The position numbers and the translations under genes were made by a program. The notes beneath the pieces are model-generated. The model saw only the letters and a program-made list of their open reading frames with translations, did no database searches and was not told the DNA's origin. This document shows, in pieces, positions 38,463 through 56,442 of a stretch of DNA of 64,000 nucleotides. This DNA is from an uncultured Fibrobacterota bacterium (GTDB lineage Bacteria; Fibrobacterota; Chitinivibrionia; Chitinivibrionales; FEN-1185): positions 256,001 through 320,000 of the forward strand of contig CAVWBU010000027.1 of the NCBI GenBank assembly GCA_963753345.1. The letters run 5' to 3'. Position 1 is the first letter of the stretch. Each line of letters starts with the position of its first letter.

Positions 38463-38804
38463 TCATCCTTTGAAAATGAAATATACGGCCCCCACAAGGC
38501 ACAGGCCTGCCCACAGAAAATTGAGCCTGATCGGCTGACGCATGTACAGAACGGCGAACGGCACAAACACCAGCAGCGTTATAACCTCCTGCAGAATCTT
38601 GAGCTGACCGAGGTTCAGCGCCGAATACCCTATCCTGTTCGCCGGGACCTGGATCATGTACTCGAAGAAAGCAATGGACCAGCTCACAATCGCGGCAATG
38701 TACCACTTTCTGTCAAGAAGGTTTTTCAGGTGAGCATACCATGCAAAGGTCATGAACACGTTGGAAAGAATCAGAAGACCGGCTGTTTTAAGAATTACGG
38801 GCAT
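38463..38804 (-). CDS. DMT superfamily small membrane protein (DUF486-like)
   Basis: LSNVFMTFAWYAHLK..SWSIAFFEY..QVPANRIG..QLKILQEVITL. Confidence 0.88.
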   Translation of the reverse strand: MPVILKTAGLLILSNVFMTFAWYAHLKNLLDRKWYIAAIVSWSIAFFEYMIQVPANRIGYSALNLGQLKILQEVITLLVFVPFAVLYMRQPIRLNFLWAGLCLVGAVYFIFKG

Positions 38805-38902: not shown

Positions 38903-41900
38903 TCAAGCAACGGCTTCAATTTTCTCGATGTTTTTCCTCCTGAAAGCAAGCCTGAAGCAGTTTCCCGTCGGATCGGTGTCGAGCCAGATACGGCCGCCGT
39001 GGGCGTTCATCACCATTTTACAGAAAAACAGCCCCAGCCCTTTGGAATACTGCGAGCTTGCGCTGCCCGAGCGGACATACTTGTCAAAGACCGCGGATTT
39101 TTCTTCTTCCGGAATTGGAACACCGGAACTGAAAAAGCTTATGATGCTTTCATCATCGGTGACATCAAGGCTTAACACAACCCGTCCTTCCGCAGGAACG
39201 TATTTGGCAGCGTTGTTGAAGATATTCTGCATCACGCGTTCGACAAGATAGGTGTCCGCTTCAATGGCAAAAAGATCATTTGAGTTATCAACGTGCGAAA
39301 TGGCCACGTTCTTTTCCTCGAACATGATATGCTTGCCCAGAGGCAGCGCCATGGCGAACAGGTTTTTTCCTGTAAGGGTGGCCTTCTTGAGCACAAGTTT
39401 GCCCTCTTCCATCTTCCCGATGTCGAGCAGATTCGACGAAAGGCTTGCTATGCCGGTGCAGCACTCCGAGACAATGCGGCTCGGTCCTGCGGATTTTCGG
39501 ATCGTTCGGGAATTGTTTCGCAAGAAGGGAGGCATTGCCTTCGATACCAGCCGTATAATTTTTGATGTCATGCACAATGGTGCCCGCCAGGAGGCCCTTC
39601 ATCCGCTCCGACTCAACGACTTTGACGTTGTACTCCTGCAATTCCTTGTTCTTTTCCTCAATGTCGCGCGTCTGTTCCTTCACCTTCTTCTCCAGGGTGC
39701 GGTTAAGACGCTTGAACCCGTCCATGAGATAGGCATTCCGCAGGAGCGTATCGGCCTGCGCGGATAGAATCTGCGCCGCCTTCTTGGCGGTTTCGGAGAA
39801 CAGGCCGCTCACCATGTCGTTGCCGAGGTAAACGCATCCGAGATAATATTCGCCATGGTACAACGGCACGCAGAGAACGGAACGGACCCTCTCTGTGTCT
39901 CCACTCAGTGTTTCTTTTGGTGCATTTCTGGTAAGAATGATTGTCTTTTGTTTCTTGGTTTCTTCAATGATCTTTTCCGAATAATGCATGTCCCTGGGGT
40001 TTATCGATGCTCCGTCAAAATTCATTCCCACTGTCTTGCCCGCAATACCGTCATCCTTATTCTCCTCCAGAAAAATATACCCGTATTGAGCGCCGGTCGC
40101 CTTGATCATGGCGGAAAGAATTTGCCCAAGCAAAGCGTCGATGTCGTCTATTTCCCGCATGGACGCGCTCACCTCGTACAGTGTGTCTATGCGAAGCTGG
40201 CTCACTTCCGATAGCGAGCCCTGCTGATCAATTGTTTTCGCCGGAGTATCCTTCTTGTATTCCACGATGACAATATCCGCTTTGTCCTTAAGCCGCTCGG
40301 TCTCAAGCTTGGCTCCGCATTGATGGAAAAGCCTGTATGCGGCGTTAAACGGTCCCTTGCTTCGCCGGGCAGGTTGCAATCCTCAAGGAATAAACCGTAA
40401 TCGCGAAGGGACTTGCCTTCTTCGTAGCGCATGTCGAGAACATGATGCTTCTTGATGGCTTTCTTGAAGAAGTACTTTGCGATGCGCTTTCTTCCCTTGA
40501 ATGCATGAAACCAGGCGAGACAGCGCAACGCAGCACCCATGTGCGCGGGATAGACAATGCCACGGAAAAAGGCTTTTCTGCAATTGATGCCAAGGTCTTT
40601 GAGAAGTTTCTTTTCGGAAAGATCCAGTTGCTTATTGGATTCGTTGGCCAGCCTGTTTCGTTTTTCGGAAATGAGGATTTCGCAATGGGTGGAATAGGCT
40701 GAGGCGATGTATTCCTGGTTGAGGTTTTTTTCTTTGATGGTTCTTAGCGATCGTAATGAAATATCGAAATGATTGCTTGACATTTCATTTAAAAACAAGG
40801 ACATGTTTGCGAAAGAAATATTCGCTATCGTCTTTACCAGCGAATCATTCATTTGCTCGGATTTTTGTTTCAATGTCTACTCAAGTCTTCCTTGCCATTT
40901 TCGTCCTCCAGGAAGCGAATAAAGGACAGCAATCGTTCTTGCGAGAATATACACCTCTGATGATCATTGCATTCAATGCTTTGCGCGTTCCTCTTCATTC
41001 ATGATTTCTTTGCATTTCTGCAAAGTTGCCAGTATAAAAAGCTAGTATAGCCAAGATGTTCTAAAGGCGTCAACTTGTCCCCAAGAGATCACCAACAGAA
41101 CTGTAATTCATCAATGCTGCGTATCAAATATTCTTCGGACTTTTTCCATATTGCCCCAAAGTAACATGTAGACAATGCCACAAAAACATTCCGCAAATAG
41201 CCAGAAGGTCTTTGCGATTAACTATTCGCAATGATTTTATTGATTTCTTAAAATAAGCCAACGATCCGTTTCTTCATTAGCAAAACATAAGCGCCAACAA
41301 TATGGTAAATGTAGGTCTCCGCTTTTTCGTAGCAATCTGGTAACCTGTCTGCAAGGTTCATTGCTTTAAGATGGACATATATTGCTAGAAGCATATCTTG
41401 AAAAAATAACGAATATGACAATTTGTTGAAAATTCTCAATATAAGCCGAATATTCTGATTGCTCATTTTTGGGGAACAAATGTTTCAAGCCAATTGAAAA
41501 GAATAATTGTACTATTGCCTTGTAACACAAGAAGAACACTTGCAACAATCTTGTTTCCAGGTAACCTGACATTCATTTGTCGTAAGGTTTCCGTAAAGAA
41601 TTTTATCGAACTATCAAACTCCCCCATATTATGATAAATCGACCCCACCCTATACTTTATTTCCAATTGTTGATATTTCTCAAGTGCCTCAGGTTTTTCC
41701 AGCAATTTCAGGAACGTATTCAATGCCTGCTGGTTCCTTCCCGTCATCATCAGCACATTCCCGAACTCCATCTGCACCTTGATCATGTCAACGGGAACAG
41801 GCAGACCCAGGCCAGGGCACTGCGAAGCCATGAGGGATGTGTTCATGAAATACCGGGTGGCAATGTCAAACGCGACTTTTTCCGTTGCATAACGCGCGGC

Positions 41901-44059
41901 TTCGTAGCAGATCTCTATGGCCTTAACGAGGTTTTTGCTCTTGAGGTAATATTCCGCAGCGTTGAATATGAATTCCTTGTCCGAGGCCATTTTTTCTTCA
42001 TACACACGCGCTATCTTTTCATTGAGCGCAAATGCATCATCCCGGGACACACGCAGGGCAATGGATTCCTGGACCTTGTCATGTCTGAAGTAAAAGGCAT
42101 TTTCGGATTTTCTGATGATGAATCCGAGGTTTTCGAGCCTGCGCAGTATGCGAGTTACTTCCTCCTTTTCAAAGCCCCCCACTTTCTCCACAATGCCTGA
42201 TTCGACTTTTCCCTGAACAAGCGACGCAAGCATAAGATAACGTTTTTCATTTTCGTTTAATATTTCCAGCCTGGAAAGAACAAGAGAGACAGGGTCGAAT
42301 TTTTCCGGCAATGATTTAATGTCTGACTTATTGTACATCCATCCTGTCGGGGAGGGTTTGAGTATTGAGGTGTTCACCAGGTATTGCACTGCTTCGGAAA
42401 CGGTAAATGGATTGCCGTCTGTCTTGGCTGGACAGCGCATCATCAAGGACTTCAGCGTCCTGAATTTCCCCTATACGGGACGAAACAAGCTCTTTGATTT
42501 CCGCCCTTGAAAACGGCCTGATGTTGAGAAGCTTTCTTATTCCGATTTTCCTGAGGTCAGTGCCGTACGCAAAAATATCAGCATCCGATTTTTCGGTCCG
42601 AAAGGAAATCACGAGCATGCAAACAGGCTGCAAAGCGAGGAATCTCTTGAGCACTTCAAAGGAGATCTGGTCTACCCATTGGAAATCGTCTACGAACACA
42701 ATTGATTGCCGGAAAAGGCTGATTGCGGAGAACAGCATGGACAGTACATGGATGATACGTTCAGCTTCTTTTTCCTTTTCTACTTTGTCTATCTCCCCCA
42801 CTTTTTCAAAATGCCCATGCAAGTTCCGGGATTATCGAGCAAATAACGCCTGAATAATCGCTAAGGTTTTTCTGAAGGATTTCCTTGAACAGGACTTTTC
42901 CCTCTTGATCGACAAAGCGCGATTTTTGACAGAAGTTGAAGCACAATGTTGCGGACAACGGAATATGGCTGGCTCGAGCTGAACCTATTGCATTTCGAAG
43001 AAAGAAACATTGTTCTATCTTCGTTTACCTTGGTCCTGAACCGGTCAACGATTTCGGTTTTGCCCATGCCGGATCTTGCCAAAGATCAGAAACGAGGAAC
43101 CTTTCCCAAACTCCAATTGTTGGAGCCCATGACAAAGAGCTTCAATTTCCGTGTCCCGGCCGACAAATACTTTTGATCGGCCCGCCGCTATTATGGCGTC
43201 CCTTTCGCCTGGAATAAAGGGTTTGCCTTCTTCCCTGATGCAGAGGATCGCCTGTTCTATGTCGTGCTTGAATCCGCTCGCAGTCTGATACCGGTCGTCA
43301 GGGGAAGGTCGCAAGGATTTAAGAAGAATAGTGTTAAGGTACGCAGGAATGTTCTTAACAGGCTTTACCTCAGTCTTAAGCGTAAATTTGAGAAGTTCTT
43401 CAAGGGAATCCTTGTGATCGGGAAACGGCAGGCTGCCGGAGATCATCCTGTACAGAATGAGTCCAACGCAGAAAAGGTCGGACCGTGAATCTATTTTGAA
43501 ATCGGTAAACCCCATCTGCTCGGGCGAAAGATACGGCATGGTTCCCACTATCCTGCCCTCAGGGAGCTTTCGCGCCTCTTCCTCGAGCATGGAAAGACCG
43601 AAATCAAGAAGCTCAAGTCCCCGCTCTTCATTGATGTAAATGTTGTGCGGGTTCAGGTCGCAATGGATTATGCCGCGCGCATGTATATATTCGAGCGCGT
43701 CCAGGACCTGGCTGAACATACAAAAGAGCTTCTTCCGCAGACAGCGCTTTTCTGTTCTCGCAGATTTTTGCAAGGGTCGTTCCGTCACGGTATGGATACA
43801 GAATCGAATAGGTGGTATCGTCGGCAAATGTCTCCGCAGGCCTGGCAATGTTCGGATGGTCGAGCGAAGATACAGTGTCAACTTCTTTCCTGAACCGTAT
43901 TTTCCTTTGTAAAGCCTCACCGGAAGCGACTTTTTGCTCGTTGAGCGATTTGAGAAGAAAATGTTCCCCTGTTTCCTTTTTTCGGGTGAGAAATACATCG
44001 CTGTCCCGGCTGGAGGAAACAAGATTGAGTATGTCGAATTTCTGCTGGAGCGTTTCCAT
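38903..44059 (-). CDS. Large Ser/Thr kinase - AAA ATPase - TPR - GAF - histidine kinase sensor, split by many frameshifts
   Basis: Ordered fragments: kinase (HCDLNPHN, DFGLS, GTMPYLSPEQ), FVGRDTE/GMGKT, VDDFQWVD, GNPF, FRHDKVQE, GAF (SVLCVPL), HDIKN H-box and HATPase (NAAKY, GLGLFFC). Confidence 0.8.
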
Positions 44060-44237: not shown

Positions 44238-46013
44238 TTACACCTTCTCTTTAAGAGTTTTTGCAAAGGCCTTCATCAGATATGGGTTGGATTTGATGCC
44301 CTTGGTTTGGCCCATTTCCTTTATTGTTTGCAGCATTCGCGGCTTTGCAGGAAGATGCTGCTCGTAATCATAATAGACCACTATTATTGAAGATTCATTA
44401 TTCTTGTTGTGTGCTGTCGATTCATTTATGCTTTTTTCAAGGTCTGATGTCGAACGTACTTCGTAGAAATTAACACCAAATGCCAGCGCCAGATACCTAT
44501 AATCAGGGTTTTGAATTTTTGTACAAAATTCCAGTTCCCCGCCGTAGGACAAACATTGATTAATCTGGACCATGTTGTAATAATCGTCTTTGAAAATCAT
44601 CCACGTAATACCCAGTTTGTATTGCACTGCTGTCAACACCTCATTACCGTGCATCAAAAAAGAGCCGTCGCCGCAAAGACAAAGAACGAATCTATCTGGA
44701 GAAGCGCATTTGCCACCGATGCATCCGGCAACACTTTGCCCCATTGAGTATCCTGCCGCGGATGTAAAATATCCATTTTGCCGGGCTTTTAGGTGCCGGA
44801 CTGAAGAAAAGGAGGATGCGCCGGTATCTGCAAAAACTATTGAATCATCAGGAAGCAATCTTGAAATTTCAGCGTAAATGTATTCTAATTTTAGTGGTAC
44901 TGTTTTCTCTGCCATCTGGTTATTTTGAGAAATATTGGCTGAAATAACATTATCAGCAATTGCTTTTGCAGATCTTGTTGGCGAATATGCAGTTTGTTTT
45001 AATTGAGCACCTAACGAGTTTAATGTGGCCGGGATGTCTCCTGCAACTGCCAATTCAACAGGAAAGTTCATTGAAAAACGTAAGGTATCTGAATCAATAG
45101 ACAAAATCTTCGTATTCTTGAAAAGATCAGGATCATATGCAAGCGTTTCGGCCTCGGAAAAGTCCATTCCTATCGCTAAAACCATATCGCTCTGTCGAAT
45201 AAGCTTTTCAGCCGACCGGTGACCATAATAGTCAATAACTCCCCCGAACAATTCCTGGAACTCGTTGAGAATTCCTTTTGAACCATGGGTTACAATGAAC
45301 GGAGATTGAATTATATCAACAATGGCTTGAAGTTCACCGCTGCAATTAGGATACACGCACCTATTTCCGATACAAATCAGTGGGTTCTTTGCTTCTCTTA
45401 ACAATGCTATTATGTGCCCTATTTTGCCATTTTCAACCCGGCAGTCATTTGCAATGCGATATTGATCGGGTTTCATATCCTCATATTCGATTTCCACGCT
45501 GAAAAAATCGCTTGGAATCCCTAAATGCACAGGCCCATAAGGAACTGAAAGTGAATTCCGGAACAATTCTCTCAAATAATCTGGTATTCTATCAGGACTG
45601 TACGCTAAAATGGATCTCCTTGTAATGCAATCAAACAGACGGTTTATCGAATATGAAACTCCGTATCCTGAATCTTCCTGATACGCATTTTTTCCAAAAA
45701 GATTTGAAGACACGACTGGAGTTATTGCAATCCCCGGAATCGCAGCCTTGAACATCTCTGCAATTCCACTCGCCAGATTTACAGCTCCGGGACCTGCCGT
45801 TCCTAAGACAAGGGCTGGTTTTTGGGAAACTTTGGTATAATCAAGTGCCATGAATCCGGCAGCGCCTTCGTGCTTTACGGATATGAATTTTATTTTTGAA
45901 TCTTTAAGCGAGCTGAAGAATGAGAGGTAATGGGAGCCTGAGATACCGAAGGCATGTTCTATGCCTTCGAGTTCCAAACATCTTACAATTGCCTGCGCGA
46001 CAGTTATTTTCAT
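44238..46013 (-). CDS. Thiamine-diphosphate-dependent enzyme (acetolactate synthase-like fold)
   Basis: FGISG, KHEGAAGFMA, GPGAVN, GYSMG and GDGSFLM..N ThDP motif. No ilvH/ilvC neighbours. Confidence 0.9.
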   Translation of the reverse strand: MKITVAQAIVRCLELEGIEHAFGISGSHYLSFFSSLKDSKIKFISVKHEGAAGFMALDYTKVSQKPALVLGTAGPGAVNLASGIAEMFKAAIPGIAITPVVSSNLFGKNAYQEDSGYGVSYSINRLFDCITRRSILAYSPDRIPDYLRELFRNSLSVPYGPVHLGIPSDFFSVEIEYEDMKPDQYRIANDCRVENGKIGHIIALLREAKNPLICIGNRCVYPNCSGELQAIVDIIQSPFIVTHGSKGILNEFQELFGGVIDYYGHRSAEKLIRQSDMVLAIGMDFSEAETLAYDPDLFKNTKILSIDSDTLRFSMNFPVELAVAGDIPATLNSLGAQLKQTAYSPTRSAKAIADNVISANISQNNQMAEKTVPLKLEYIYAEISRLLPDDSIVFADTGASSFSSVRHLKARQNGYFTSAAGYSMGQSVAGCIGGKCASPDRFVLCLCGDGSFLMHGNEVLTAVQYKLGITWMIFKDDYYNMVQINQCLSYGGELEFCTKIQNPDYRYLALAFGVNFYEVRSTSDLEKSINESTAHNKNNESSIIVVYYDYEQHLPAKPRMLQTIKEMGQTKGIKSNPYLMKAFAKTLKEKV

Positions 46014-46173
46014 TGTGTGCTTTGCCTTATCAGCGTTGCATTCGATGCTCAAGTTCAGTTCAATCACAAAATCAAAAAATAGTTATTGGTTTTCAACAAA
46101 AGTGAAAAAGAAGGATGCTTCGTTTTTAAAACTGTGTCTATCGTAAGAATGTGCCAAATTCGGAACAAATAAT

Positions 46174-47481
46174 ATGACAAAGGCGCTTGCTCTCATCTCA
46201 CCCAGGGGCAGCTTTAGCAGCAGCAATCCGGAATTTAAGAAATTCTGGAACGGCTCGCCCTATACCTCAACTTACCGTCAGGACTGGTCCGGCCTCGGAA
46301 CCGGTTTGTTAATAGTAGCTGCATTGACTCCATCCGAATATGATGTCAAAATTATCGACGAAAATATTGAATCCGTAGACTTTTCTAAAAAATTTGACCT
46401 TGTCGGCATTACCGCAATGACACAGCAGGCACGTCGGGCATACCAGATTGCAGATGAATTCAGGAAAAGGGGTATGTTGGTAGTTATTGGGGGAATACAT
46501 GCTACGATTTTGCCGGAGGAAGCAAAACTGCATTGTGACAGCGTCGTAATCGGCGAATCTGAAAATACCTGGCCAATGTTGCTAAAAGATCTAAAAGCAA
46601 AGGCTCTGTTACCCTTTTACAAAGCGGACAATATTGTAAGCCTTATAAATTCACCCTTACCAAGATATGACCTGCTAAAGAATAAGAAGTATTCGATTGT
46701 TTGGCTTCAGACCACCCGTGGATGTCCGCACGATTGCGATTTTTGCGCTGCATCAAAGATTTTTGGGGCAAAATACAGGTTCAAAGACATTTATCAGTTA
46801 AGACTGGAAATAGAACTAATCCGAAAAGAACTTGGAAATGTCTTGATCGGTATCGCAGATGACAATATAGCGGTAAATAAGAATCATCTTTCCTTACTAT
46901 TAGATTACCTCAAGACATCTGGCATCAGATGGCTGGGCCAATCAGACATTTCAATTGCCCAGGATAGTGGAATGTTAAACATCGTTCAAAAAAGTAATTG
47001 CAAACTTCTGTTGTTAGGACTCGAAAGTATATCGGCAGAGAACTTAAGGCTTGTCAACAACAACTCCTGGAAGTACAATAAACTTTCAAGTTATTCTTCA
47101 TATATTGGAAAAATTCAGGAAGCGGGCATCGGCGTCCTAGGCTCTTTTATTTTCGGCTTTGATTATGACGATGTTACTGTTTTTAAGCAAACTGCGGATT
47201 TCGTTTTGCAAAACAACCTTTATTATGGTAACTTTAGCATTCTTACCCCATATCCGGGAACAAGATCAAGGGACAGATTAGTAAGAGAAAACAGATTGCT
47301 TCCCACTTCCTGGGAGAATTATACGCTATGGGATTTAAATTTCATTCCAAAAAGAATGAGCACTTCGGAATTACAAGCAGGATTGTTTGATACTTATAAA
47401 ATGATTAACACAAGAGAAGCCTTCGAAAAAAGAGCAATCTTTTTTAAAAATATTTTTAAAAGTCAAATGAGGAAATCTTGA
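46174..47481 (+). CDS. B12-binding radical SAM protein
   Basis: DLVGIT..VIGGIHAT..GESE; TRGCPHDCDFC; GLES; FIFGFDYD; LTPYPGT. Confidence 0.92.
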   Translation: MTKALALISPRGSFSSSNPEFKKFWNGSPYTSTYRQDWSGLGTGLLIVAALTPSEYDVKIIDENIESVDFSKKFDLVGITAMTQQARRAYQIADEFRKRGMLVVIGGIHATILPEEAKLHCDSVVIGESENTWPMLLKDLKAKALLPFYKADNIVSLINSPLPRYDLLKNKKYSIVWLQTTRGCPHDCDFCAASKIFGAKYRFKDIYQLRLEIELIRKELGNVLIGIADDNIAVNKNHLSLLLDYLKTSGIRWLGQSDISIAQDSGMLNIVQKSNCKLLLLGLESISAENLRLVNNNSWKYNKLSSYSSYIGKIQEAGIGVLGSFIFGFDYDDVTVFKQTADFVLQNNLYYGNFSILTPYPGTRSRDRLVRENRLLPTSWENYTLWDLNFIPKRMSTSELQAGLFDTYKMINTREAFEKRAIFFKNIFKSQMRKS

Positions 47482-47505
47482 GAAGAGAATGGTATTTACA
47501 AGTAT

Positions 47506-48870
47506 TCAATTTTCTGCGGCAACTTGTATTTCGAAATATTCTTCGCACACCAGTCTTGATACTCTTTTTTTGTTTTCTCTGTTTTTGTCTATAAGCTCAA
47601 CATGTGCACGGATAACATTGTATAGCAATTCATCTGATTTGCATTCAACGGTTACTTTGAGCACATTCTCATGCATCTTCATCAACCGTTCCACTTCTGC
47701 AGGATAAACTTTATTTCCTCCGACATTGAACATTCGTTTTTTACACTCAATGAAATAGACATATCCTTCATCATCCATTTTGCCAATATCCCCGGAATGC
47801 AACCAACCATTTTTTATTGTCAATTGTGTGGCTTCCGGATTATTATAGTACCCTTTCATCACATTTGCGCCTTTAATGCATATTTCTCCGACTTGCCCTG
47901 CCGGAAGGATTGATCATCCGAATCGAGGATAGCCACTTCGCAACAGGGCAAAGCACGACCTACCGACCCTTGCTTTACTTTATCTCCGGGACAATGCCAC
48001 GTACAAATCGGAGATGCTTCGGTAAGGCCATATCCCTACTTGAATTTCCACATTGAAATCCTTTTTTAAAATAATAGAATACTTTCGGCCAGTCTACTTC
48101 CCCCGCTCGATAGAATTTTTACGCGTGGGAAACTATGGATTTTAAATGTGGCAATTTCTTTAGAAAATAGTATACAAGCGGAATGCTGCATAAATATAGC
48201 GTCACTTTATATCGTTCAAGTTCAGCATTGCTATCTTTCGTATTGTTGAAAAGTTCGCAATATCCTCAATCAAAATATTTCCGCCGACTATAGAAGGAAT
48301 AATAACGCCTGTCTGCAATGCAAACAAATGATGGAATGGGATTATCGAACATGAGAACGGTGTTATCAGATACTTTGGGTTGCATATTATCCCAGCCTCT
48401 GCATTCGCCCTCAAACTCTCATTCGTCAGCATCGCGCCCTTTGCATACCCATCCGCTGCATTGGTGTACAGAATCAGGCACACATCCTCCAGCCCTTCCA
48501 ACTTCCTTTCCTCCAGCCTGCAATCCCTGAATTCAAATTCCTTTTCAAAATCAAACGTGTCCGTGCTTTTATCAATGCGTATGAGTGCGCCCGGCACAGT
48601 GTCGGCCATCATTTCGGCAAGTTCCAGCTTGCCGATGGCCGGATCCACCAGCACGCAGATCTTTCCGGACTTAATAATGCCGAACAGGGCATATACCATC
48701 TTGATGTGGTTGGGAGCAAAAAGATAGACAAACGGCGAGTTGGAAACGGTCCGCTTATTAAGGCATTCCGCCACAGCGTCAATGTTCTGCCGGATTACAT
48801 CGGGCGGGTAGGTCTTGTCCCTGAAGTAGATATTACCAAGATTTAAACTATCGGTGAGAAGCGGCATCAA
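47506..48870 (-). CDS. AMP-dependent acyl-CoA/ACP ligase, frameshifted
   Basis: LYTNAADGYAKGAML (divergent P-loop), PFHHLF, GYGLTEASP, GWLHSGDIG, GGNKVYPAEVE spread over several frames. Confidence 0.75.
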
Positions 48871-48927
48871 TAAATATTCTGTTTTAAGAATGAGTTCGCA
48901 TCAATCGAAGTGCTGCTCAAGCAAAGG

Positions 48928-49197
48928 CTACTTTGAAACAGCCCCTTCTCTTGCCATTTCACCCTCAAGTACGGTCAAGAATTCGTTTAAAGACTCCGCT
49001 TCCATGGCTGAAATCGGAATTTCGATATTCAGTTCGTTCTCAAGTTTTGCCAACACAGCGACAAACTGCATTGAATCAAGGTTCACCTGCTCCCGCAGGT
49101 TCTTTGTCGCGTCAATAGTGGCTGGGTCGATATTGACGACGCTCTGGATAAGGCTGTAAATTTTCTTTCTTGTTGCTTCGTTCAAGTCATCCCCCAC
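48928..49197 (-). CDS. Acyl carrier protein
   Basis: NLDSMQFVAVLAKLENELNIEIP, with the phosphopantetheine Ser in the DS motif. Confidence 0.9.
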   Translation of the reverse strand: MGDDLNEATRKKIYSLIQSVVNIDPATIDATKNLREQVNLDSMQFVAVLAKLENELNIEIPISAMEAESLNEFLTVLEGEMAREGAVSK

Positions 49198-49369
49198 TTC
49201 CGATTAAACCGATCATTTTTGCATTGACAATCAATTTTGATCAAGGCGCTTGTCATTGATCATAGAGCACTCCACGTTCAACATCTTGCCCATATTTACC
49301 GATTTACGATGAGCTGTAACTTCTTTTGATTTATTAAGTTCCAGAAATGACATTTCGTATTGGTTTAAG

Positions 49370-50446
49370 TCAGTCATCTGAATATACATGCCTCCCTGCA
49401 GAAAGCGATATTCCCAGGTTTGGAACGCTGTCCAGCTTCTTAAGGAACAAATCCATTTTTTCTCGTGTGATATTTCCCCTGCCCCACGAACACGGCAGAG
49501 AATCGTCGAGTGCAAGCAATATTCCTTCAACCTGGCAGCCGTAAAAAGTGTCCGGCGAAGCAAGCCCGATGTCGAATCCGGCATCAAGCGCAAACGGCAA
49601 AGACACGATGCCGCCGTGGTAGACAAAGACGTCCTTACGCAGGGGGTCTGTTACCGTCACATTCTGCGGAGCTGAAGCATCGCACACGATGGTGCCGGGC
49701 CTAAAATCATCCTGCGAGTACATGGGAACGTAGGCGCTTGTCACAAAAATAACGATGTCGGATTGCTGGACCGCCATGTTGTTATCGGTGGATATTTCAA
49801 TGTTGCTTGTCAACATATCTTTCCGGCTTTCCTGCAGCGTTTCGAGAGGGCCGATGCTGCGCGCCGTGAGGATCATTCTCTTTACCTTGTTGCCGAAATA
49901 GGAAACGCATCCGCTGCCGATATCTCCGGAGGCGCCAACTATGCCGATGGTCGCCCTGCTCAAATCAACCCCGAGTTCTGCCGTTGTCTTCTCGATAGAA
50001 CGGACGATAACGGCCGCGGTCAACGTGTTGCCTGAGGTAAGCTTCATTTCATGCTTTTGCGCAAAGTCCTGTTCCCTACCCTGCAGAACGATCGAGGTGA
50101 ATGCGCCGAGCGCGGCGACCGTGCATCCGGATTGTGAAGCGATTGAAAGCGCCTGATCGATCTTTTCCACCACCTTTTTAAGCCGTATATCCCTCATGTC
50201 CGGCAAAAACGGGACCATGATCAGGTGCGCATCGAAATAGTTCTTTTTGTCAAAGGTGAGGTTATGCCAATCAATCACTTTATAGGAAGGCGTCCATTCG
50301 AACAGCTTGATAAGGAGCTCATCGCGGTATGTTTTATCCGGACGCAAGTGTTTTATATAGGCCCTGAACAGGGGCATGTCTGCGGGATGCCCGATAAAAG
50401 CGACTTTTGCGGTAGGGCCGTGATGTAGGTGGGTTGCATTCGTCAT
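49370..50446 (-). CDS. Acyl-ACP reductase-like protein (AAR family, fatty-aldehyde forming)
   Basis: AFIGHP, ALGAFTSIV, LTSGNTLTA, IGIVGASGDIGSG, CDASAPQN, GG, YGCQVEGILLAL (catalytic Cys position) and SWGRGNIT match cyanobacterial AAR motifs. Confidence 0.82.
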   Translation of the reverse strand: MTNATHLHHGPTAKVAFIGHPADMPLFRAYIKHLRPDKTYRDELLIKLFEWTPSYKVIDWHNLTFDKKNYFDAHLIMVPFLPDMRDIRLKKVVEKIDQALSIASQSGCTVAALGAFTSIVLQGREQDFAQKHEMKLTSGNTLTAAVIVRSIEKTTAELGVDLSRATIGIVGASGDIGSGCVSYFGNKVKRMILTARSIGPLETLQESRKDMLTSNIEISTDNNMAVQQSDIVIFVTSAYVPMYSQDDFRPGTIVCDASAPQNVTVTDPLRKDVFVYHGGIVSLPFALDAGFDIGLASPDTFYGCQVEGILLALDDSLPCSWGRGNITREKMDLFLKKLDSVPNLGISLSAGRHVYSDD

Positions 50447-50483
50447 GGGCTGGTCGCGTCCGGTGCCTGAAGCGGTCAGACAG

Positions 50484-51497
50484 TCACAGTGTTTCGAGAA
50501 TGGAAGCATAGTCCGCTTCACCGATCGTGCGGTTGAACTGGATCCGGACGGTCCCGGAACCGGTATCGTGATGAATTTCCCGCGCGGAAAGGGAAATGCC
50601 GCCTATTTCAAACGGGTCGTCGTGCCACTCAAAGGTGCCATCGTATTTGAAAAGCATGCCTCGTGGAGAAATATTAATCAGAAAAACCGGAAGAACGCGC
50701 TCGCCGAATATGAGCGACGTATGCTTTTCGACAAGCTGGCGTTCGTGGGCCCTGTCCGAAGTCGCGGTGAGGGTCTGCACCATTTTTCCCATGTTTGGTT
50801 CGCTGAGCGCTTCCTTGAAGATCAGCCTGCAGTTCTTATGCTTGAGGTCGTTGAACAGCGGCTCCGCATCAAAGGCGATCTCTCCTATTTTAACGGCAAC
50901 CTGGGCCGCGTCGAAAAGACCGTCGTAGTAGAACATCATGCCCTTTTGGGAGACATTGACCACATAAGCGCGGATGTCTTTGCCGTTCAGCTTGATGTTG
51001 CTGTATTTGCCGATATTATGGCGGGGGTATTTCCGGTCGTCAACCTGCGACCTGGTCAATTCCTCCTTGATTGCATGGATCATGGAGTCGATGTTGGTCT
51101 TCATTTTCTCCTTGAGAATATGACCGAGCACCTCCTCGATAACCGGAATGCCGAGATTATAATCGATGGTAAAGTAGATCTTGATGCCTTCGTTCTGAAA
51201 GTCCTCAACCTTCCACGTTCCGTTGATGTTCTCAAAATCGCCGTCTATCGATTCAAACCGCAGCTCGTAGTTGGCAACGTCGTAATAGTCGCGTTCCACC
51301 CAGCGCAGCGGCGCCTCTTCAACCGTGACGAACCACTCCGATTTTCCGTCGGTCGGGGTTTTCTCAATGACGTTCACCTTGTCGACGTTCTCCATGATGG
51401 CTTCGTACCGGGAGTAGTCGGAGATGATGGTCCAGGCGAATTCCTTACGCACCTTTCCCTTGAGCACCGCTTCGGTTGAGACTCGTTCGTAGGCCAT
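50484..51497 (-). CDS. SRPBCC/START lipid-binding domain fused to two PilZ domains
   Basis: N-terminal W..ISDYSRY..IM, W.E.D, F..IDGDF..GTW; PilZ motifs RKYPR/NVSQKG and RAHER/NISPRG. Confidence 0.8.
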   Translation of the reverse strand: MAYERVSTEAVLKGKVRKEFAWTIISDYSRYEAIMENVDKVNVIEKTPTDGKSEWFVTVEEAPLRWVERDYYDVANYELRFESIDGDFENINGTWKVEDFQNEGIKIYFTIDYNLGIPVIEEVLGHILKEKMKTNIDSMIHAIKEELTRSQVDDRKYPRHNIGKYSNIKLNGKDIRAYVVNVSQKGMMFYYDGLFDAAQVAVKIGEIAFDAEPLFNDLKHKNCRLIFKEALSEPNMGKMVQTLTATSDRAHERQLVEKHTSLIFGERVLPVFLINISPRGMLFKYDGTFEWHDDPFEIGGISLSAREIHHDTGSGTVRIQFNRTIGEADYASILETL

Positions 51498-51827: not shown

Positions 51828-52535
51828 CTATGATTCCGCTTTGCAGCCGATGAGCCGCCCTACATCCGGTTCTGCGGGCCCGGCAAAGAACGCGTGCCCG
51901 CCCGGCACCGAAACAAATCTGGAGCCCAAATCATCAGCCAGCGCTTTTCCCGCGGCCACGGGGACAATTGCATCCTCACTGCCGTTAAGAACCATGGAGG
52001 CACACCGCAATTTTGCCAGTACCGGAAGCAGGTTTGCCTGTTCGAGAAACAACAGGCCGGCAGCAAGCGAATTCACGCCGTACCGTGCGGATTGTAAAAC
52101 ATCAGGCGAAAGGCCGGCGGTCAGCAGAAAATCGCGCAGGACCGTATTCCCGGGTGTCGGAAGCCGTTGTCGCATGGCGGCCAGCACACTTGTCTTCCAG
52201 CCGGACCTGAACCCTTCACACCTGCAGAACGACGGCGTGGCGGACAGAAGAACCAGTTTGTGCGGTTCGCATCGTAGCGCAAGCGCGCCGGCGATTATCG
52301 CGCCGGTGGACCATCCGGCAACAGCGTTCGCCGTTGCAAGTTCATTTTCAAATGTTCGTTCGACTTTCGATACCCAATGGGACAGGAGCGTTTCACCGTC
52401 AAAAAGAGACGGCATCAACGGATTCACATCCACGTATATGGCGCTGGCGCCGAACAGGGGCTGCAAAAGTTTTGGGCCAATGCCCCACCCTCCGAAAACA
52501 AGCCACCTGTCAACCATGGAGTTTTTTCCATTCAC
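51828..52535 (-). CDS. bioH: Pimeloyl-ACP methyl ester esterase-like alpha/beta hydrolase
   Basis: GGWG, GWSTG elbow, D..VP and GHA. It is the last gene of the bio operon. Confidence 0.75.
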   Translation of the reverse strand: MNGKNSMVDRWLVFGGWGIGPKLLQPLFGASAIYVDVNPLMPSLFDGETLLSHWVSKVERTFENELATANAVAGWSTGAIIAGALALRCEPHKLVLLSATPSFCRCEGFRSGWKTSVLAAMRQRLPTPGNTVLRDFLLTAGLSPDVLQSARYGVNSLAAGLLFLEQANLLPVLAKLRCASMVLNGSEDAIVPVAAGKALADDLGSRFVSVPGGHAFFAGPAEPDVGRLIGCKAES

Positions 52536-53656
52536 CGAGTGTGTCGATCACAAATGCTATATCTGCGTCCGACAGCCCGGAATGCACCGAGAACCGGACG
52601 CGTGCCTTGCCCTGCGGGACCGTGGGCGGCCGGATGGCCGGCGCCTTAATGCCGCGCGTACGAAGAAAAGCTGAGAGCTCGACGGCTTGTTTATCGCTTC
52701 CCGCAAGGCACGGCACGATCTGCGTCGAGGAATTAAGCGTGTCGAAGCCGCAATCGCGGATTCCCTCTCGCAGAATACGCGCTTTTGTCAATAGTGCCGG
52801 GCCGAGCCCGGGGTGTTTGCGGCAGATGACGCACCGCGGCAAGGTCATGCGCCAGCACCGACTGCGGCAGCCCCGTGGAATAGACAAGGCTGCGCGCCAG
52901 GTTGACAAAACAGTCTCTGAAGAACGAATTGCCCGCAAAGAAACCGCCCAATCCGGCAACGGCCTTGCTGAGCGTTCCCATCACAACGTCGATCCCGCTC
53001 TCCACGCCGCATTCCTCCACCAACCCGGCAAGCGTTTTCCCGAACACGCCCGTTGCGTGAGCCTCGTCGACCATCACCATGCAGCCGAACTGCTTTGCAA
53101 GCCCGCAGATGTCGGCAAGCGGCGCCGTGTCGCCGTCCATGCTGAACACGGAATCGGTGACAATGAGCCGTTCCTTCTTTGTGGAGACCGCAAGTCTGTC
53201 CCTTAGATCCGTCATGTCGCAATGGCAATACCGCACGAGCGCCGCGCCCGACAGGCGCACGCCGTCGAGGATCGAGGCGTGATTGAGCCGGTCGCAGAAG
53301 ACCTCGGTGTCACGCCCGCACAGGGCCTGAATGATGCCCAGGTTCGCGCATACCCGGAATTAAACACCAGCGCCGCCTCGGTTTTTTTCCACTGGGCAAG
53401 CTCCAGTTCGAGTGCGTCGTAAAGCGGCGAACGGGTTTCGATGAGACGCGAGGCGAGATTTCCCGAAAAGCAAGAATCCGCCAGACGTTCTGCCTCCGAC
53501 CTGACCTCGGGATCGGTATGCAGCGAACAATAGCTGTTGGTCGGCGAGATCGAGGCGCGCGCCGCAAGGCGACGGGCCCATTGTCCTGAACAGGTCGAGG
53601 CTTTTTCTGCTGTCAAGTTCCGCGTCCAGGCGGTCGTATATAGGCGAGTCATTCAT
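52510..53656 (-). CDS. bioF: 8-amino-7-oxononanoate synthase, frameshifted
   Basis: ASRLI, FNSGY, DSVFSMDGD, VDEAHATG, GTLSKA, AIRPPTVP across four frames. Confidence 0.85.
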
Positions 53657-54989
53657 GGAGAATGTCTCTAACTGCTTTGGTGGTGACCGCAAACATGGTA
53701 CTGATCTGTTCTTCGGTGATAATATACGGCGGGACAAAATACAGCACGTTTCCCAGGGGACGGATGAGAACGCCGTTTTCCAGCGCTTTTTGCGCGATAC
53801 GGAATGGCACGCGTTTTTCCGGAAGAAAAGGCGATTTGGTTTTCCTGTCCGCCACAAGTTCGATTGCGCCAATCATGCCGATGGACTTCACGTCCCCGAC
53901 CTCATCAATGCCGCGCAAGGCTTCAAGCCCTTTTCTGAAAAACTCCATCTTCGTTTCGAGCGACCCAGGGATATTCTCTTCTCGCATTATGGCAAGTGTT
54001 TCGCAGGCCGCTGCGGCAGCAAGCGGGTTCCCGGTAAAGGAGTGACCGTGAGCCAGTTCCTTTCCCGCAAGGTGATTGCCGCAGAATGCCGCATAGACCT
54101 CCTCGCGCGCAACGGTCGCCGCCATGGGCAAACAGCCGCCCGTGAGCCCTTTTGCAAGGCACATGATGTCGGGCGTTACGCCGGCATGCTCGCACGCGAA
54201 AAGTTTTCCGGTGCGGCCGAAACCGGTCGCCACCTCATCGGCAATGGTGAGCACGCCATGGACTTTACAGGCTGCAAAAAGGCGCTTGAGCACCTTGGCC
54301 GGATACACGCGCATGCCTGCCGCGCCCTGAACCATGGGCTCAAAAATGCACGCAGCAATCGTGTCGCCCTTTTCGTCAAGGATGCGTTCAAGCGATTTCA
54401 TGCATTCGGCGCCGCAGGTCTCTTTTTCCATGCCGCAAGGGCAGCGGTAGCAGTATGGTGCGTCCGCGTACCACTGCGACTTGAACGCTTTGTGAAAGAG
54501 CGAGTGATACGCGGGAATGTTTCCAACCGACATTGCCCCGAGCGTGTCACCATGGTAGCCGCCGGAGAGCGAAACAAAGGCGGTGCGCGGTTCTCCCCTT
54601 GCCGCCCGGTATTGCAGCGCAATTTTGAGCGCCACCTCAACCGCTGTGGAACCGTCGTCGGAATAAAAGATGCGCGCAAGTTCCTTCGGCAGCAGCGCCG
54701 CAAGCCTGTGCGAAAGTTCGAGCGCAGGCTCCGAAATAAACCCTGCCATAAGGACGTGTTCAAGTTTGTCCGCTTGATTCTTGACAGCCCTGATTATCCG
54801 CGGATGGCAATGCCCCAGAACCGACACCCACCATGATCCTATTGCGTCAAGGTAGCGCCTTCCGTTTTTATCGAAAAGGTAAACACCCTCGCCGCGGGTA
54901 ATCACGGCCGGCGGATAGTCGCGGACGTCATCCGAACACGTGAAGGGAAACCAGAGACGGTTGAAGGGGTCAGCGGAGGAGTTCATCAC
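53649..54989 (-). CDS. bioA: Adenosylmethionine-8-amino-7-oxononanoate aminotransferase
   Basis: LWFPFT, SWWV, GSTAVEVALK, YHGDT, DEVATGFGRTG, AKGLTGG. Confidence 0.95.
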   Translation of the reverse strand: MMNSSADPFNRLWFPFTCSDDVRDYPPAVITRGEGVYLFDKNGRRYLDAIGSWWVSVLGHCHPRIIRAVKNQADKLEHVLMAGFISEPALELSHRLAALLPKELARIFYSDDGSTAVEVALKIALQYRAARGEPRTAFVSLSGGYHGDTLGAMSVGNIPAYHSLFHKAFKSQWYADAPYCYRCPCGMEKETCGAECMKSLERILDEKGDTIAACIFEPMVQGAAGMRVYPAKVLKRLFAACKVHGVLTIADEVATGFGRTGKLFACEHAGVTPDIMCLAKGLTGGCLPMAATVAREEVYAAFCGNHLAGKELAHGHSFTGNPLAAAAACETLAIMREENIPGSLETKMEFFRKGLEALRGIDEVGDVKSIGMIGAIELVADRKTKSPFLPEKRVPFRIAQKALENGVLIRPLGNVLYFVPPYIITEEQISTMFAVTTKAVRDILHE

Positions 54990-55671
54990 AAAACTCCTTG
55001 GTCTTCTTCAAACAGCGGCATCCATACGGCACCACGAGAAACGGCACGTTTCGTGCGTAATTGCGAAGCGTTCTGACGTTGTCGCGGTAGATAAAATCAT
55101 CTCGGACATTATTACGGTTATTGATAACCAGGCCCGCCAGCGAAAGGCCGGCGGCCTCAATCGCGCACATGGTGAGAAACGTATGGTTGAGCGTGCCCAG
55201 TTCGGGAGTGGTGACGAGAACGACGGGCAGCTTGAGCAGCTCCATGAGATTGACAGTGAGCACCGATGGACCAAGCGGAACCATCACTCCCCCTGCGCCC
55301 TCAGCGAATACGCATCCGCCGCGCATACCGGGAAGGCTTCGTATCATGTCAAGACTTCGTTTGATTTTCCGGATTGAAACTTGCGCGTGCGCGCGCTGTG
55401 CAGCCAGATGCGGTGAACACGCGGGAACAAACCGGTACGGAACGTGAATGTGATCCGCGCCAAGGACCAGACCGCCCGACTTTCTGACATATTCAAAGTC
55501 CGGAGCGCTAAGCATGCCGTCTTTCAATTGCCTGCATCCGGTTTGCACCGGTTTCATGTACGAAACCGGAACAAATGCGGCCATCGCCTCAACGAGCAGC
55601 CGGCTCACAAATGTTTTTCCGACGTCGGTGCCGGTGCCGGTGACAAAAAATCCGATTGACTTAGCCTTCAT
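54970..55671 (-). CDS. bioD: Dethiobiotin synthase
   Basis: VTGTGTDVGKT, KPVQTG, SPHLAA, EGAGG, LGTLNHT. Confidence 0.95.
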   Translation of the reverse strand: MKAKSIGFFVTGTGTDVGKTFVSRLLVEAMAAFVPVSYMKPVQTGCRQLKDGMLSAPDFEYVRKSGGLVLGADHIHVPYRFVPACSPHLAAQRAHAQVSIRKIKRSLDMIRSLPGMRGGCVFAEGAGGVMVPLGPSVLTVNLMELLKLPVVLVTTPELGTLNHTFLTMCAIEAAGLSLAGLVINNRNNVRDDFIYRDNVRTLRNYARNVPFLVVPYGCRCLKKTKEFCDELLR

Positions 55672-55677
55672 ACGAAA

Positions 55678-56442
55678 TCATTTCTTGATTGCAAGTCCAT
55701 AGGCGACATTGATGGAGAGCGGAACCCCGGAAGGCTCGTTATGCCTTTCTCCATATTCCCTGCACAGTCTTATTATTTCCTGCAGAGAAAGGCGCTTCCC
55801 CTCGACCGCGGTGCTGCCCGTCTCGCTCATGTACTTGAGCGCATCCATGGCAGAGGCAAAGCGGTACTGCTTTGCAAAGGATAAATACGTCCGGCAGTCG
55901 AATCCCGATGCGGCCAACAGCGCCGAAAAATCGTCGCGCGAAGGAAGACGTACCGGAACGGAAAGATTGCGCTCCTGGCGCAGGGAAAATATTTCGGCAA
56001 AAGAACCTTGCAGAAATGCGGCGAATACCAGCGCGCCGCCGGCAGCCAGAATGCGGTGCAATTCCCCCATGCCTTTGGATGGATCCGCCAGCCAGTGTAA
56101 CACCGAGGCGACCACTGCGCCGCCGAACACCCCGCTTTTGAACGGCAACCCCTCAATGTCGGACTGAACCGCGCCGGAGCTTCTGCGGCAACGCAGCATT
56201 CCGTATGCCAGATCGGTGCGCATCAATCTGACAGGAACCTTGTGATCGATAAGCAACCCTGCCATGCCGCCTGCGCCGCAGCCGGCGTCAAGCCAAGGCA
56301 GGCTTAGCCAGCCCGCGGTCTTTACAAGAGGAACAAGCATTGCAAGGATCTGTTTCTGGATATACGCTTCCTCCTGGTATCCGTTTGCTTTTGCGGAAAA
56401 TGTCGCGGCAATGCAGCGTTTGGACGGAATTTGTACAATCAT
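55678..56442 (-). CDS. bioC: Malonyl-ACP O-methyltransferase
   Basis: IAATFSAKANGY..IQ, LDAGCGAG, LHW. It is the first gene of the bio operon. Confidence 0.85.
   Translation of the reverse strand: MIVQIPSKRCIAATFSAKANGYQEEAYIQKQILAMLVPLVKTAGWLSLPWLDAGCGAGGMAGLLIDHKVPVRLMRTDLAYGMLRCRRSSGAVQSDIEGLPFKSGVFGGAVVASVLHWLADPSKGMGELHRILAAGGALVFAAFLQGSFAEIFSLRQERNLSVPVRLPSRDDFSALLAASGFDCRTYLSFAKQYRFASAMDALKYMSETGSTAVEGKRLSLQEIIRLCREYGERHNEPSGVPLSINVAYGLAIKK

Follow-up and report, generated by a model that had tools for sequence, protein, structure and literature searches.

Six clustered genes occupy positions 44,238-51,497 of the window, a stretch of 64,000 nucleotides from an uncultured wetland bacterium of the Fibrobacterota, and all six named in the original prediction were found there. 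On the minus strand, they encode a SRPBCC/START domain (residues 1-150) joined to two PilZ domains (50,484-51,497), a putative acyl-thioester reductase of the AAR family with 358 residues (49,370-50,446; the open frame reaches 50,521), a dedicated acyl carrier protein (ACP; 48,928-49,197), an ANL-family adenylating ligase (about 47,496-48,867) and a ThDP-dependent enzyme belonging to a cassette-specific clade (44,238-46,067; the likely start at 46,013 gives 591 amino acids). The sixth, a class B (B12-binding) radical SAM protein (46,174-47,481), is encoded on the plus strand, opposite to the others. The ThDP and radical SAM genes are inserted between the ligase gene and that of a giant kinase (38,903-44,059, minus strand), for which Pfam matches on its fragments and on an intact orthologue of 1713 amino acids give the architecture Ser/Thr kinase-AAA_16-TPR-GAF-HisKA-HATPase.

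The cluster had been described as free of an aldehyde-deformylating oxygenase (ADO), of ilv genes and of a class III aminotransferase. For ADO this extends to the entire genome, which is 94% complete and gave no match to PF11266, and the true IlvB (804 bits against TIGR00118) lies on a different contig. There is no aminotransferase within the cluster, but one is encoded 2 kb away (53,649-54,989); it is BioA, in a bioC-D-A-F-H operon that was not matched beside the cassette in the loci of 15 relatives.

Conservation and distribution of the cassette

The genes for START-PilZ, AAR-like reductase, ACP and ligase are kept together across genomes of the Chitinivibrionales (Fibrobacterota), usually flanked by a REC-histidine kinase on one side and a Ser/Thr kinase-GAF-histidine kinase of about 1,700 residues on the other; the REC-HK/STAS pair of the present genome sits on another contig. 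In the 15 relatives' loci, START adjoins the reductase in 14, an ACP gene is present next to the reductase in 13 and the ligase is found in 11. Among 27 named loci centred on the reductase, START occurs in 23, ACP and ligase in 22 each and the ThDP gene in nine; the giant kinase is adjacent to the cassette in 14, two of them with shuffled gene order. The loci L028 and L035 have a shuffled gene order as well as a retained cassette membership. Synteny is thus kept in both sets of loci, and hence the cluster is more than a chance neighbourhood and represents a conserved, uncharacterised gene set. Co-occurrence, which had been proposed as a check for the reductase, ThDP, ACP and START genes, holds across relatives for START, reductase, ACP and ligase, and the grouping of ligase, ACP and reductase into one unit is likewise upheld by their joint conservation; for the ThDP gene it holds in only some of the loci. 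The cassette is restricted to one lineage, formed by the Chitinivibrionales and one other family of the Fibrobacterota, and its distribution is patchy (29 of 296 genomes of the phylum), every carrier being an uncultured MAG or SAG.

The trio of START, reductase and ligase also occurs in two Thermodesulfobacteriota-type loci. In L048, START is a stand-alone protein of 161 amino acids and in L050 it is present only as a fragment at the edge of the locus; both loci encode a small radical SAM protein together with a LolA-like one, and L048 in addition a DUF1302 protein. The pairing of START and reductase with a FAAL-like ligase and these LolA-like and DUF1302 proteins is consistent with a route to envelope lipids, in which the trio would provide the fatty aldehyde, or the alcohol, for a structural lipid of the ether type or with some other alkyl linkage, START would be a mere chaperone and the kinases would regulate envelope remodelling. 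The ElbD CL-ACP-R logic of myxobacteria is a model for such a route, and the START domain comes closest to a helix-grip ligand-binding fold, which would suit a chaperone. This route is nevertheless considered fairly unlikely; the Chitinivibrionales cassette contains neither an acyltransferase or alkyl-DHAP synthase gene nor any glycerol-linked one, the patchy distribution would be odd for a core membrane lipid, and close relatives exchange their tailoring genes.

The reductase and its predicted START-PilZ partner

The reductase matches the AAR model TIGR04058 with an E-value of 4e-34, though its score of 118.4 bits is far below the cut-off of 449.7, and it also matches the AAR of PDB entry 6jzu (E 3.7e-25) and the model of the PigE N-terminal domain (83 bits, E 1.4e-23). 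The motif GASGDIGSG, which aligns with the NADPH loop of AAR (GxxGxxG), and Cys329, which aligns with C294 of AAR, are invariant in all 17 reductase sequences compared. Family membership and catalytic residues are therefore those of AAR, with 30-34% identity to the reductase of the cyanobacterial AAR-ADO alkane pathway (PMC7089970), and the enzyme is putatively aldehyde-forming.

In the START-PilZ protein, the START domain scores 58.7 bits against PF03364 (cut-off 23.4) and PilZ 27.5 bits against PF07238 (cut-off 22.5). RxxxR and (D/N)xSxxG motifs are present in both PilZ domains, as RKYPR and NVSQKG in the first and RAHER and NISPRG in the second, and the motif residues R155, R159, S183 and G186 of the first are nearly invariant; the fused domains are putative c-di-GMP sensors. 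An AF2 model of the protein has a pLDDT of 83, and its START domain superposes on 2d4r with a TM-score of 0.93. The closest structural neighbour is TTHA0849, followed by the polyketide aromatase/cyclases ZhuI and TcmN. As these two act on ACP-bound chains, and as D27 and D87 of the START domain are invariant, START could itself be an enzyme, a cyclase or dehydratase working on the ACP-bound or released chain, rather than a passive acceptor. This is rated as very unlikely, given that identity to the cyclases is just 12-16% and that a ketosynthase to provide a poly-beta-keto chain is absent.

A complex of START and reductase was predicted with a score of 0.72 (0.72, 0.66 and 0.72 in three runs), as compared with 0.00 for the best of three controls; in a benchmark, 58 of 80 solved complexes attained this score, as did 2 of 110 mismatched pairs. 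The contacts agreed by at least 97% between runs and the pLDDT of the partners was at least 89. The predicted interface brings residues 56-80 of the reductase together with residues 60-65, 87 and 115-131 of START, and each partner contributes residues to it that are invariant or almost so. When the reductase was aligned with cyanobacterial AARs by MAFFT, its residues L59, P61 and T64 corresponded to AAR positions 21, 23 and 26, which border the exit of the tunnel where AAR meets ADO (PMC7089970). The main contacts of ADO are on the long AAR helix R73-H91 (PMC7089970); it is equivalent to about residues 113-131 here and lies outside the predicted START site. Direct contact of START and reductase, at the acyl-tunnel opening that faces ADO in cyanobacterial AAR, is therefore likely on the strength of these models. 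Since the model docks START where that tunnel opens towards ADO, START may take the place of ADO as aldehyde acceptor. To our knowledge, no complex of this kind has been described, and the fold of ADO is different from that of START. A fusion of START with the reductase was not found among the longer homologues, ten of ten having a PigE-like or other architecture, which is weak counter-evidence.

Ligase, carrier protein and optional enzymes

The ACP matches PF00550 (PP-binding, 43.2 bits) and carries the serine motif LDSM. PF00501 is matched by the N-terminal part of the ligase, which has about 455 amino acids in relatives; the ligase matched no specific family. Of the sequence motifs named A3 and A10 in ANL ligases, the A3 loop has an unusual form (Y-T-N-A-x-D-G-x-x-K), and the chain stops about six residues past the proline of the A10 region, without the usual Gly-Lys. 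Owing to these two features, even the adenylation activity is an assumption.

In the present assembly, tblastn with the intact orthologue of 455 amino acids (L010:7647-9014) located at least five frame changes in the ligase gene, at homopolymer runs of A6, A7 and G5. Short-read contigs of close relatives, from four public runs of two studies, differ by indels of one or two bases at the break sites. When the 12 listed indels were applied, the gene was resolved into two open pieces corresponding to residues 1-214 and 216-455 of the orthologue. From the homopolymer sites and the indels in the contigs of the relatives, it was concluded that the ligase breaks are probably assembly errors. The giant kinase gene is split into at least seven open frames in this assembly. 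Should the breaks in both genes be genuine, this strain would carry a cassette in decay. The original prediction was silent on the broken ligase frame, as it was on the flanking sensor kinases and the likely contact of START and reductase.

The ThDP protein has the Pfam domains TPP_enzyme_N, M and C. It shares the three-domain ThDP fold and the catalytic Glu with carboligases of the ALS/AHAS type and with the solved BbmA and CsmA (PDB 8x3x, 8x3z); its best solved match is BbmA (E 6e-65) and the next is E. coli ALS I (1.5e-46). Its relatives are named automatically as acetolactate synthase large subunit, and an ordinary acetolactate synthase standing by chance beside unrelated genes would account for this name. 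That explanation is contradicted and almost certainly wrong. The protein scores 262.6 bits against TIGR00118, for which the cut-off is 538.35, and all NCBIfam models of ALS are below their own cut-offs. It belongs to a clade of 49 proteins with at least 35% identity, the next relatives having at most 31%; the clade is monophyletic (SH-like support 98-99), and the IlvB of the genome falls outside it, so that the phylogeny proposed as a check places the enzyme apart from IlvB. The catalytic Glu is retained in all 49 members, whereas both arginines of the ALS motif RFDDR are absent from every one of them, and the QW motif is also lost. In ALS, the two arginines of RFDDR contribute to binding of the acceptor, a 2-oxo acid, through its carboxylate; the absence of the pair is in keeping with an acceptor that is not an acid, for instance an aldehyde.

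Among 41 genomes searched, the ThDP enzyme is encoded in 6 of 19 with the reductase and in none of 22 without it, and all six members of the clade in these genomes sit within the cassette. Since 13 of the 19 genomes with the reductase lack it, it cannot be required for the core function; the ThDP and radical SAM proteins are optional accessories outside the core, and the view that both belong to a single six-gene pathway is not supported in that form. Between the window and the relative G002, the ligase is 44% identical in its C-terminal part and the ThDP enzyme 45%, as against 83% for the reductase, the ligase part and the ThDP enzyme thus varying together. This joint variation, and the fact that the closest named families are ALS-type carboligases with carboxylic acid products, would agree with a ThDP enzyme acting upstream, where it makes or trims an unusual acid (e.g. 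an acetohydroxy acid, or a 2-oxo acid after decarboxylation) for activation by the ligase. Such an order appears highly improbable in view of the loss of the ALS acceptor motif throughout the clade and of the retention of the same ligase family in genomes that have no ThDP enzyme.

The radical SAM protein combines a B12-binding domain (PF02310, 52.8 bits) with a radical SAM domain (PF04055, 36.6 bits) and the motif CPHDCDFC (CxxxCxxC), and is of class B by these features. No NCBIfam model was matched at its cut-off, the best being BchE with 80 bits. Orthologues with at least 47% identity were found in four other genomes of the 41, in three cases within the cassette, and eight further paralogues are present in this genome (E of at most 1e-50).

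A proposed pathway and its known counterparts

In carboxylic acid reductases and in CL-ACP-R modules of the ElbD type, a carboxylic acid is adenylated, passed to a carrier protein and released reductively as an aldehyde. The best explanation of the whole cassette, to which a probability of roughly 0.5 is given, is a split version of this logic that feeds the START-PilZ protein, with optional tailoring by the ThDP and radical SAM enzymes. The stand-alone ligase would adenylate its carboxylic acid substrate (probably a fatty acid) and load it onto the dedicated ACP; the reductase would accept the acyl chain at the conserved cysteine and reduce it with NAD(P)H to the aldehyde. START, docked on the N-terminal domain of the reductase at the opening of the acyl tunnel, is predicted to take up the hydrophobic product, which is the role of ADO in cyanobacteria, and the attached PilZ domains, of which there are one or two, may make the hand-off or the output responsive to c-di-GMP. 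The adenylation-carrier-reduction sequence would be the one known from the reductases and modules above; here, however, it would be divided among three separate proteins, with a ligase atypical in its A3 and A10 regions and an acyl-cysteine reductase of AAR type instead of a terminal reductase of SDR type. The comparison with AAR-ADO is similar in that a partner is predicted at the N-terminal domain of the reductase near the tunnel exit. Unlike in that system, the predicted partner is the START-PilZ protein, the predicted contact avoids the helix used by ADO and a dedicated ligase and ACP, in place of fatty acid synthesis, would supply the acyl group.

Where the ThDP enzyme is present, it would most likely join an acyl anion derived from a 2-oxo acid to the aldehyde, giving an alpha-hydroxyketone, and the radical SAM enzyme would most likely methylate the chain. 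The acyloin step is a plausible hypothesis. The combination of genes had been thought to have no characterised counterpart, yet a ThDP enzyme does stand alongside an AAR-like thioester reductase in the synthesis of MAP for prodigiosin. There PigD, a ThDP enzyme, alters the thioester before it is reduced by the AAR-like N-terminal domain of PigE, which also has a class III aminotransferase domain (PMC8341465). This is the sole characterised pairing of the two enzyme types. By analogy, and in keeping with the match of the reductase to the PigE N-domain model, the ThDP enzyme could modify the ACP-bound thioester (e.g. with acetyl from pyruvate), after which the reductase would free the modified aldehyde. 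This order is judged distinctly unlikely for the cassette. The 1,4-addition of PigD type requires a thioester of the 2-enoyl kind, and neither a dehydrogenase nor a dehydratase gene was observed among those of the cassette; the reductase is stand-alone, fusions with a class III aminotransferase being found only in other lineages; the ThDP protein is ALS-like, with no PigD model among its 25 best NCBIfam matches; pyrrole-forming genes are absent; and the core works without the ThDP enzyme in most genomes.

For the split reductase pathway, the steady linkage to two sensor kinases suggests a lipid product that is regulated or serves as a signal, as opposed to a bulk metabolite. CqsA and LqsA, the alpha-hydroxyketone autoinducer synthases, are PLP enzymes that use acyl-CoA. 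A comparison with them holds only on the acyloin reading, under which a long-chain alpha-hydroxyketone would again be made beside sensor kinases, by enzymes for which homology is not expected.

The cassette reductase and its predicted START partner

The original prediction had placed six clustered genes at 44238-51497, and all six were found there as described. The ThDP enzyme (44238-46067, minus strand) has three TPP domains, and its start likely lies at 46013, since the identical database protein is 591 amino acids long. It is followed by a B12-binding radical SAM enzyme (46174-47481, plus strand), which lies on the strand opposite to the other five cassette genes. The remaining members, all on the minus strand, are an ANL ligase (about 47496-48867), an acyl carrier protein (ACP; 48928-49197), a reductase similar to the cyanobacterial acyl-ACP reductase (AAR; 49370-50446) and a protein with a START domain and two PilZ domains (50484-51497), both of which carry the RxxxR and NxSxxG motifs.

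The reductase is a true AAR relative: it matched the solved AAR of S. elongatus with an E value of 3.7e-25, and its identity to cyanobacterial AARs is 30-34%. In all 17 sequences compared, the NADPH loop was invariant, and so was the cysteine that aligns with C294. Its score of 118 bits is far below the cut-off of the AAR model (450), and it also matches the N-domain of PigE (E 1.4e-23). To our knowledge, AAR-type reductases belong almost only to cyanobacterial alkane synthesis or occur as a fused domain in prodigiosin-type pathways. The AAR homologue in L101, a locus labelled 'Klebsiella', is a stand-alone 353-aa protein and not PigE; no ThDP match was found there or in the second AAR-bearing locus with that label. 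The aldehyde-deformylating oxygenase (ADO), reported as missing from the cluster, was found nowhere else in the source genome either (4.5 Mb in 55 contigs, 94% complete).

As START and the reductase are conserved together in more than one phylum, their binding was modelled; a fusion of the two was absent from 10 longer reductase homologues, a sample that weighs little. With residues 38-383 of the reductase and 1-150 of the START protein, both entered as alignments, the complex prediction gave a score of 0.72 (0.72, 0.66 and 0.72 in the separate runs), and the best of three controls gave 0.00. In the benchmark, 58 out of 80 solved complexes score as high as 0.72, as do 2 out of 110 mismatched pairs, counts that hold only roughly here because our own alignments were used. 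The runs shared at least 97% of contacts, with a partner pLDDT of at least 89, and the predicted interface joins reductase residues 56-80 with START residues 60-65, 87 and 115-131; invariant residues are abundant on both surfaces. When the reductase was aligned with cyanobacterial AARs by MAFFT, its L59, P61 and T64 fell on AAR positions 21, 23 and 26, which line the tunnel exit (PMC7089970). The main salt bridges of ADO involve AAR R73-H91, according to the same source (PMC7089970), and this segment corresponds to about residues 113-131 of the reductase, outside the predicted START interface. Hence, any analogy between START and ADO would concern the place near the tunnel exit and not the contacts themselves. 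In contrast to the AAR-ADO system, no ADO was found here, and the partner predicted near that exit is a START-PilZ protein.

The structure model of the START-PilZ protein had a mean pLDDT of 83, and the START domain was closest to the helix-grip protein TTHA0849 (TM 0.93), its next neighbours being polyketide aromatase/cyclases and the plant ligand-binding PR-10 and PYL proteins. A rival reading is that the START domain is itself an enzyme.

Linkage of the cassette and probable exchange of its tailoring genes

The reductase is present in 19 of 41 related genomes and in 29 of the 296 genomes of a phylum sample, mostly in the order to which the window belongs. One further family has it in 3 of 6 genomes, the largest family in none of 151. 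Gene neighbourhoods were compared in 15 loci of relatives and in 27 named loci around the reductase, two sets which overlap in genomes and in which part of the gene misses are due to contig ends. START was found in 14 of the 15 and 23 of the 27 loci, ACP in 13 and 22, the ligase in 11 and 22, and a gene for a REC-HisKA-HATPase protein (REC-HK) in 9 and 15, respectively. The corresponding numbers for the ThDP enzyme were 5 and 9; a giant kinase was seen in 14 of the 27 named loci, and the cassette-type radical SAM in 4 of the 15. Of the genes whose co-occurrence with AAR the original prediction proposed to check, START and ACP stay with the reductase in most loci, as does the ligase, and the ThDP enzyme is an optional member with its 9 of 27 loci. 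In L028 and L035 the gene order is shuffled, and REC-HK, START, reductase, ACP, ligase and giant kinase are all retained; the survival of the same members argues for selection acting on the linkage.

In two Thermodesulfobacteriota-type loci (L048 and L050), START and the reductase are accompanied by a FAAL-like ligase, a LolA-like protein and a small radical SAM. The START of L048 is a protein on its own, 161 amino acids long, with a DUF1302 protein after it, whereas L050 shows only a START fragment, at the edge of the locus. Hence, the pairing of START with the reductase is the older feature, to which the PilZ domains were added in Chitinivibrionales. All 86 START-PilZ protein clusters with a taxon in the source name are from Chitinivibrionales, and the carriers of the cassette so far are uncultured genomes only. 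As far as the literature search reached, no report on this system was found, and a search on the lipids of cultured Chitinivibrio or Chitinispirillum returned unrelated papers only.

The ThDP enzyme scored below the cut-off of every NCBIfam model. It reached 262.6 bits, against 804 bits for the true IlvB, which is encoded on another contig, in agreement with the lack of ilv genes in the cluster noted in the original prediction. Its database relatives comprise 49 proteins of at least 35% identity, after which identity drops to 31% or less. In a FastTree phylogeny of 122 sequences, the comparison with IlvB proposed in the original prediction, these 49 fell on one branch (SH-like support 98-99) apart from IlvB and named acetolactate synthases (ALS). 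RFDDR and QW are acceptor-site motifs of ALS. All 49 clade members retain the catalytic Glu; the RFDDR site reads DF(S/G)E(F/A/..), both arginines being absent throughout the clade, and QW is lost. The clade has two pocket variants: one with F at the last RFDDR position and W at the Q of QW, the other with A and I, respectively. An ordinary acetolactate synthase was therefore rejected, on the sub-cut-off score, the separate branch, the loss of both motifs and the true IlvB elsewhere.

Among solved structures, BbmA (8x3x, E 6e-65) was the best match of the ThDP enzyme, with E. coli ALS I next; a literature search on the function of BbmA and CsmA gave nothing usable, and matches in the protein atlas were generic 'thiamine pyrophosphate-binding protein' clusters only. 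A member of the clade occurs in only 6 of the 41 related genomes, where 6 of 6 copies lie within the cassette, and in 0 of 22 genomes without the reductase, so that the enzyme is taken, on this distribution, as tied to the cassette yet optional. Two more ThDP-family paralogues are present in the genome, at G000:C47:186525-188286 (L107) and C47:220608-222236 (L105); both are below the ALS cut-off and one has an in-frame TGA.

On comparing the window with two genomes of the same genus (L009 and L010), START and the reductase were found to be 77-85% identical, the ThDP enzyme 43-45%, the radical SAM enzyme 50% and 79%, and the C-terminal part of the ligase 44% and 77%. Over 44238-48200, a stretch that takes in the ThDP gene, the radical SAM gene and part of the ligase gene at its 3' side, identity to one or both relatives is 43-50%, against 77-89% in flanking genes; G+C drops to 39-42% in the 44-48 kb region, compared with 52-58% further on. 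From this fall in identity and G+C, the tailoring block looks as if it was exchanged between lineages, in a manner resembling allelic replacement. The radical SAM enzyme belongs to class B (best model match BchE, 80 bits; best solved match E 1e-6), and a close characterised relative was absent among NCBIfam models and solved structures. The family is strongly expanded, with nine matches at E<=1e-50 in the genome, which has eight further paralogues at this level. Matches on contigs C10, C39 and C43 have near-identical scores. In a relative's genome (G027), the orthologue was found at one end of a contig of only 8.8 kb. The ligase matches are generic (feruloyl- or fatty-acyl-CoA synthetase, MenE and FadD13, at about 1e-31 to 1e-39); the protein has an unusual A3 loop and ends shortly past the A10-region proline.

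Proposed chemistry of the cassette

From homology, motifs, synteny and the modelled contact, we infer that the ligase would put an acid, probably a fatty acid, onto ACP, and that the AAR-type reductase would convert it to an aldehyde. The aldehyde may be received by START docked at the tunnel exit of the reductase, and the PilZ domains would tie this hand-off to c-di-GMP. Where present, the ThDP and radical SAM enzymes would modify the product further, in the simplest case through a carboligation that gives an alpha-hydroxyketone and through a methylation. What is new here is an AAR system with a START partner, its own ligase and carrier feed, and a private ThDP clade; the AAR family would be in a new setting, with a lipid-binding START protein instead of ADO, wired to c-di-GMP and two sensor kinases. 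Should the hand-off take place as modelled, c-di-GMP signalling would be directly linked to the synthesis or capture of lipid aldehydes, and the private clade of ThDP carboligase-like enzymes may produce long-chain acyloins.

A rival role for the cassette is the making of a structural lipid. A further reading takes the cassette as a lipid-signal module complete in itself. In it, the c-di-GMP-gated START would take the fatty aldehyde directly from the reductase, strains with the ThDP enzyme would make a long-chain alpha-hydroxyketone, the linked GAF-histidine kinase/Ser-Thr kinase would sense the product, and swaps of the ThDP, radical SAM and ligase-tail genes among close relatives would yield strain-specific signals. 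We regard this further reading as unlikely, at roughly one chance in eight. The alpha-hydroxyketone synthesis of CqsA and LqsA is PLP chemistry, whereas the hydroxyketone of the cassette would come from thiamine chemistry if the signal-module reading were true.

The interpretation in the original prediction is partly supported; the pairing of a ThDP enzyme with an AAR-like reductase, which it did not recognise as characterised, has a precedent. In prodigiosin synthesis, as described in PMC8341465, the ThDP enzyme PigD acts first, on a thioester, and the AAR-like N-domain of PigE follows. The cassette reductase also matches this domain, and the order of this characterised pair is a live alternative here, with a ThDP step that would precede the reductase and use a thioester. 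A separate rival gives the ThDP enzyme an upstream role, in which it would make or trim the acid that the ligase activates.

Reading frames and neighbouring genes

In this assembly, the ligase shows at least five frame changes, at A6, A7 and G5 runs, relative to the intact 455-aa orthologue of the same genus. Public contigs of close relatives (four runs from two studies), with a similarity of about 92% in the ligase and 99-100% in ACP, differ from the window by indels of 1-2 bases at 47580, 47909, 48038, 48066-48078, 48120-48122 and 48182-48200; the 7 runs listed include no RNA run with this sequence. Applying 12 of the indels by script, with 6 more left out, gave two open stretches of ligase, one corresponding to residues 1-214 of the orthologue and the other to residues 216-455. 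The giant kinase gene upstream (38903-44059, minus strand), which encodes a Ser/Thr kinase-AAA_16-TPR-GAF-HisKA-HATPase protein of 1,713 amino acids in an intact relative, falls into at least seven open frames here and shares a low-G+C, homopolymer-rich stretch with the broken ligase; bioF (52733-53652, minus strand) is in two open frames of 175 and 146 amino acids. These breaks are probably assembly errors, though they may be true decay in the window's strain. The ligase orthologues of L032 and L033 also give two tblastn pieces each, at differing positions, which looks like assembly error and not a programmed shift common to them.

Downstream of the cassette lies a biotin operon of bioC, bioD, bioA, bioF and a bioH-like gene (51828-56442, minus strand). 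The claim that the cluster has no class III aminotransferase holds for the cassette proper, the sole nearby one belonging to this adjoining operon. A functional tie between the two was dropped, as none of the 15 loci of relatives gave a match to the operon beside the cassette. The neighbour of START in 9 of these loci is the REC-HisKA-HATPase protein, and its orthologue here (61% identical) is on another contig with a STAS-like match alongside. A rearrangement cut precisely between REC-HK and START, which is now abutted by the biotin operon. In relatives, START is preceded by STAS and the REC-histidine kinase; in the window's genome these two are found at G000:C15:87443-88528 (L109). On the other side of the cassette, a second B12-binding radical SAM gene (36688-38310, plus strand; 540 amino acids) lies near the giant kinase gene and a DUF486/DMT_6 gene (38463-38804, minus strand) beside it; this trio recurs in the same-genus locus L017, and the DUF486 gene adjoins the giant kinase in L011 too.
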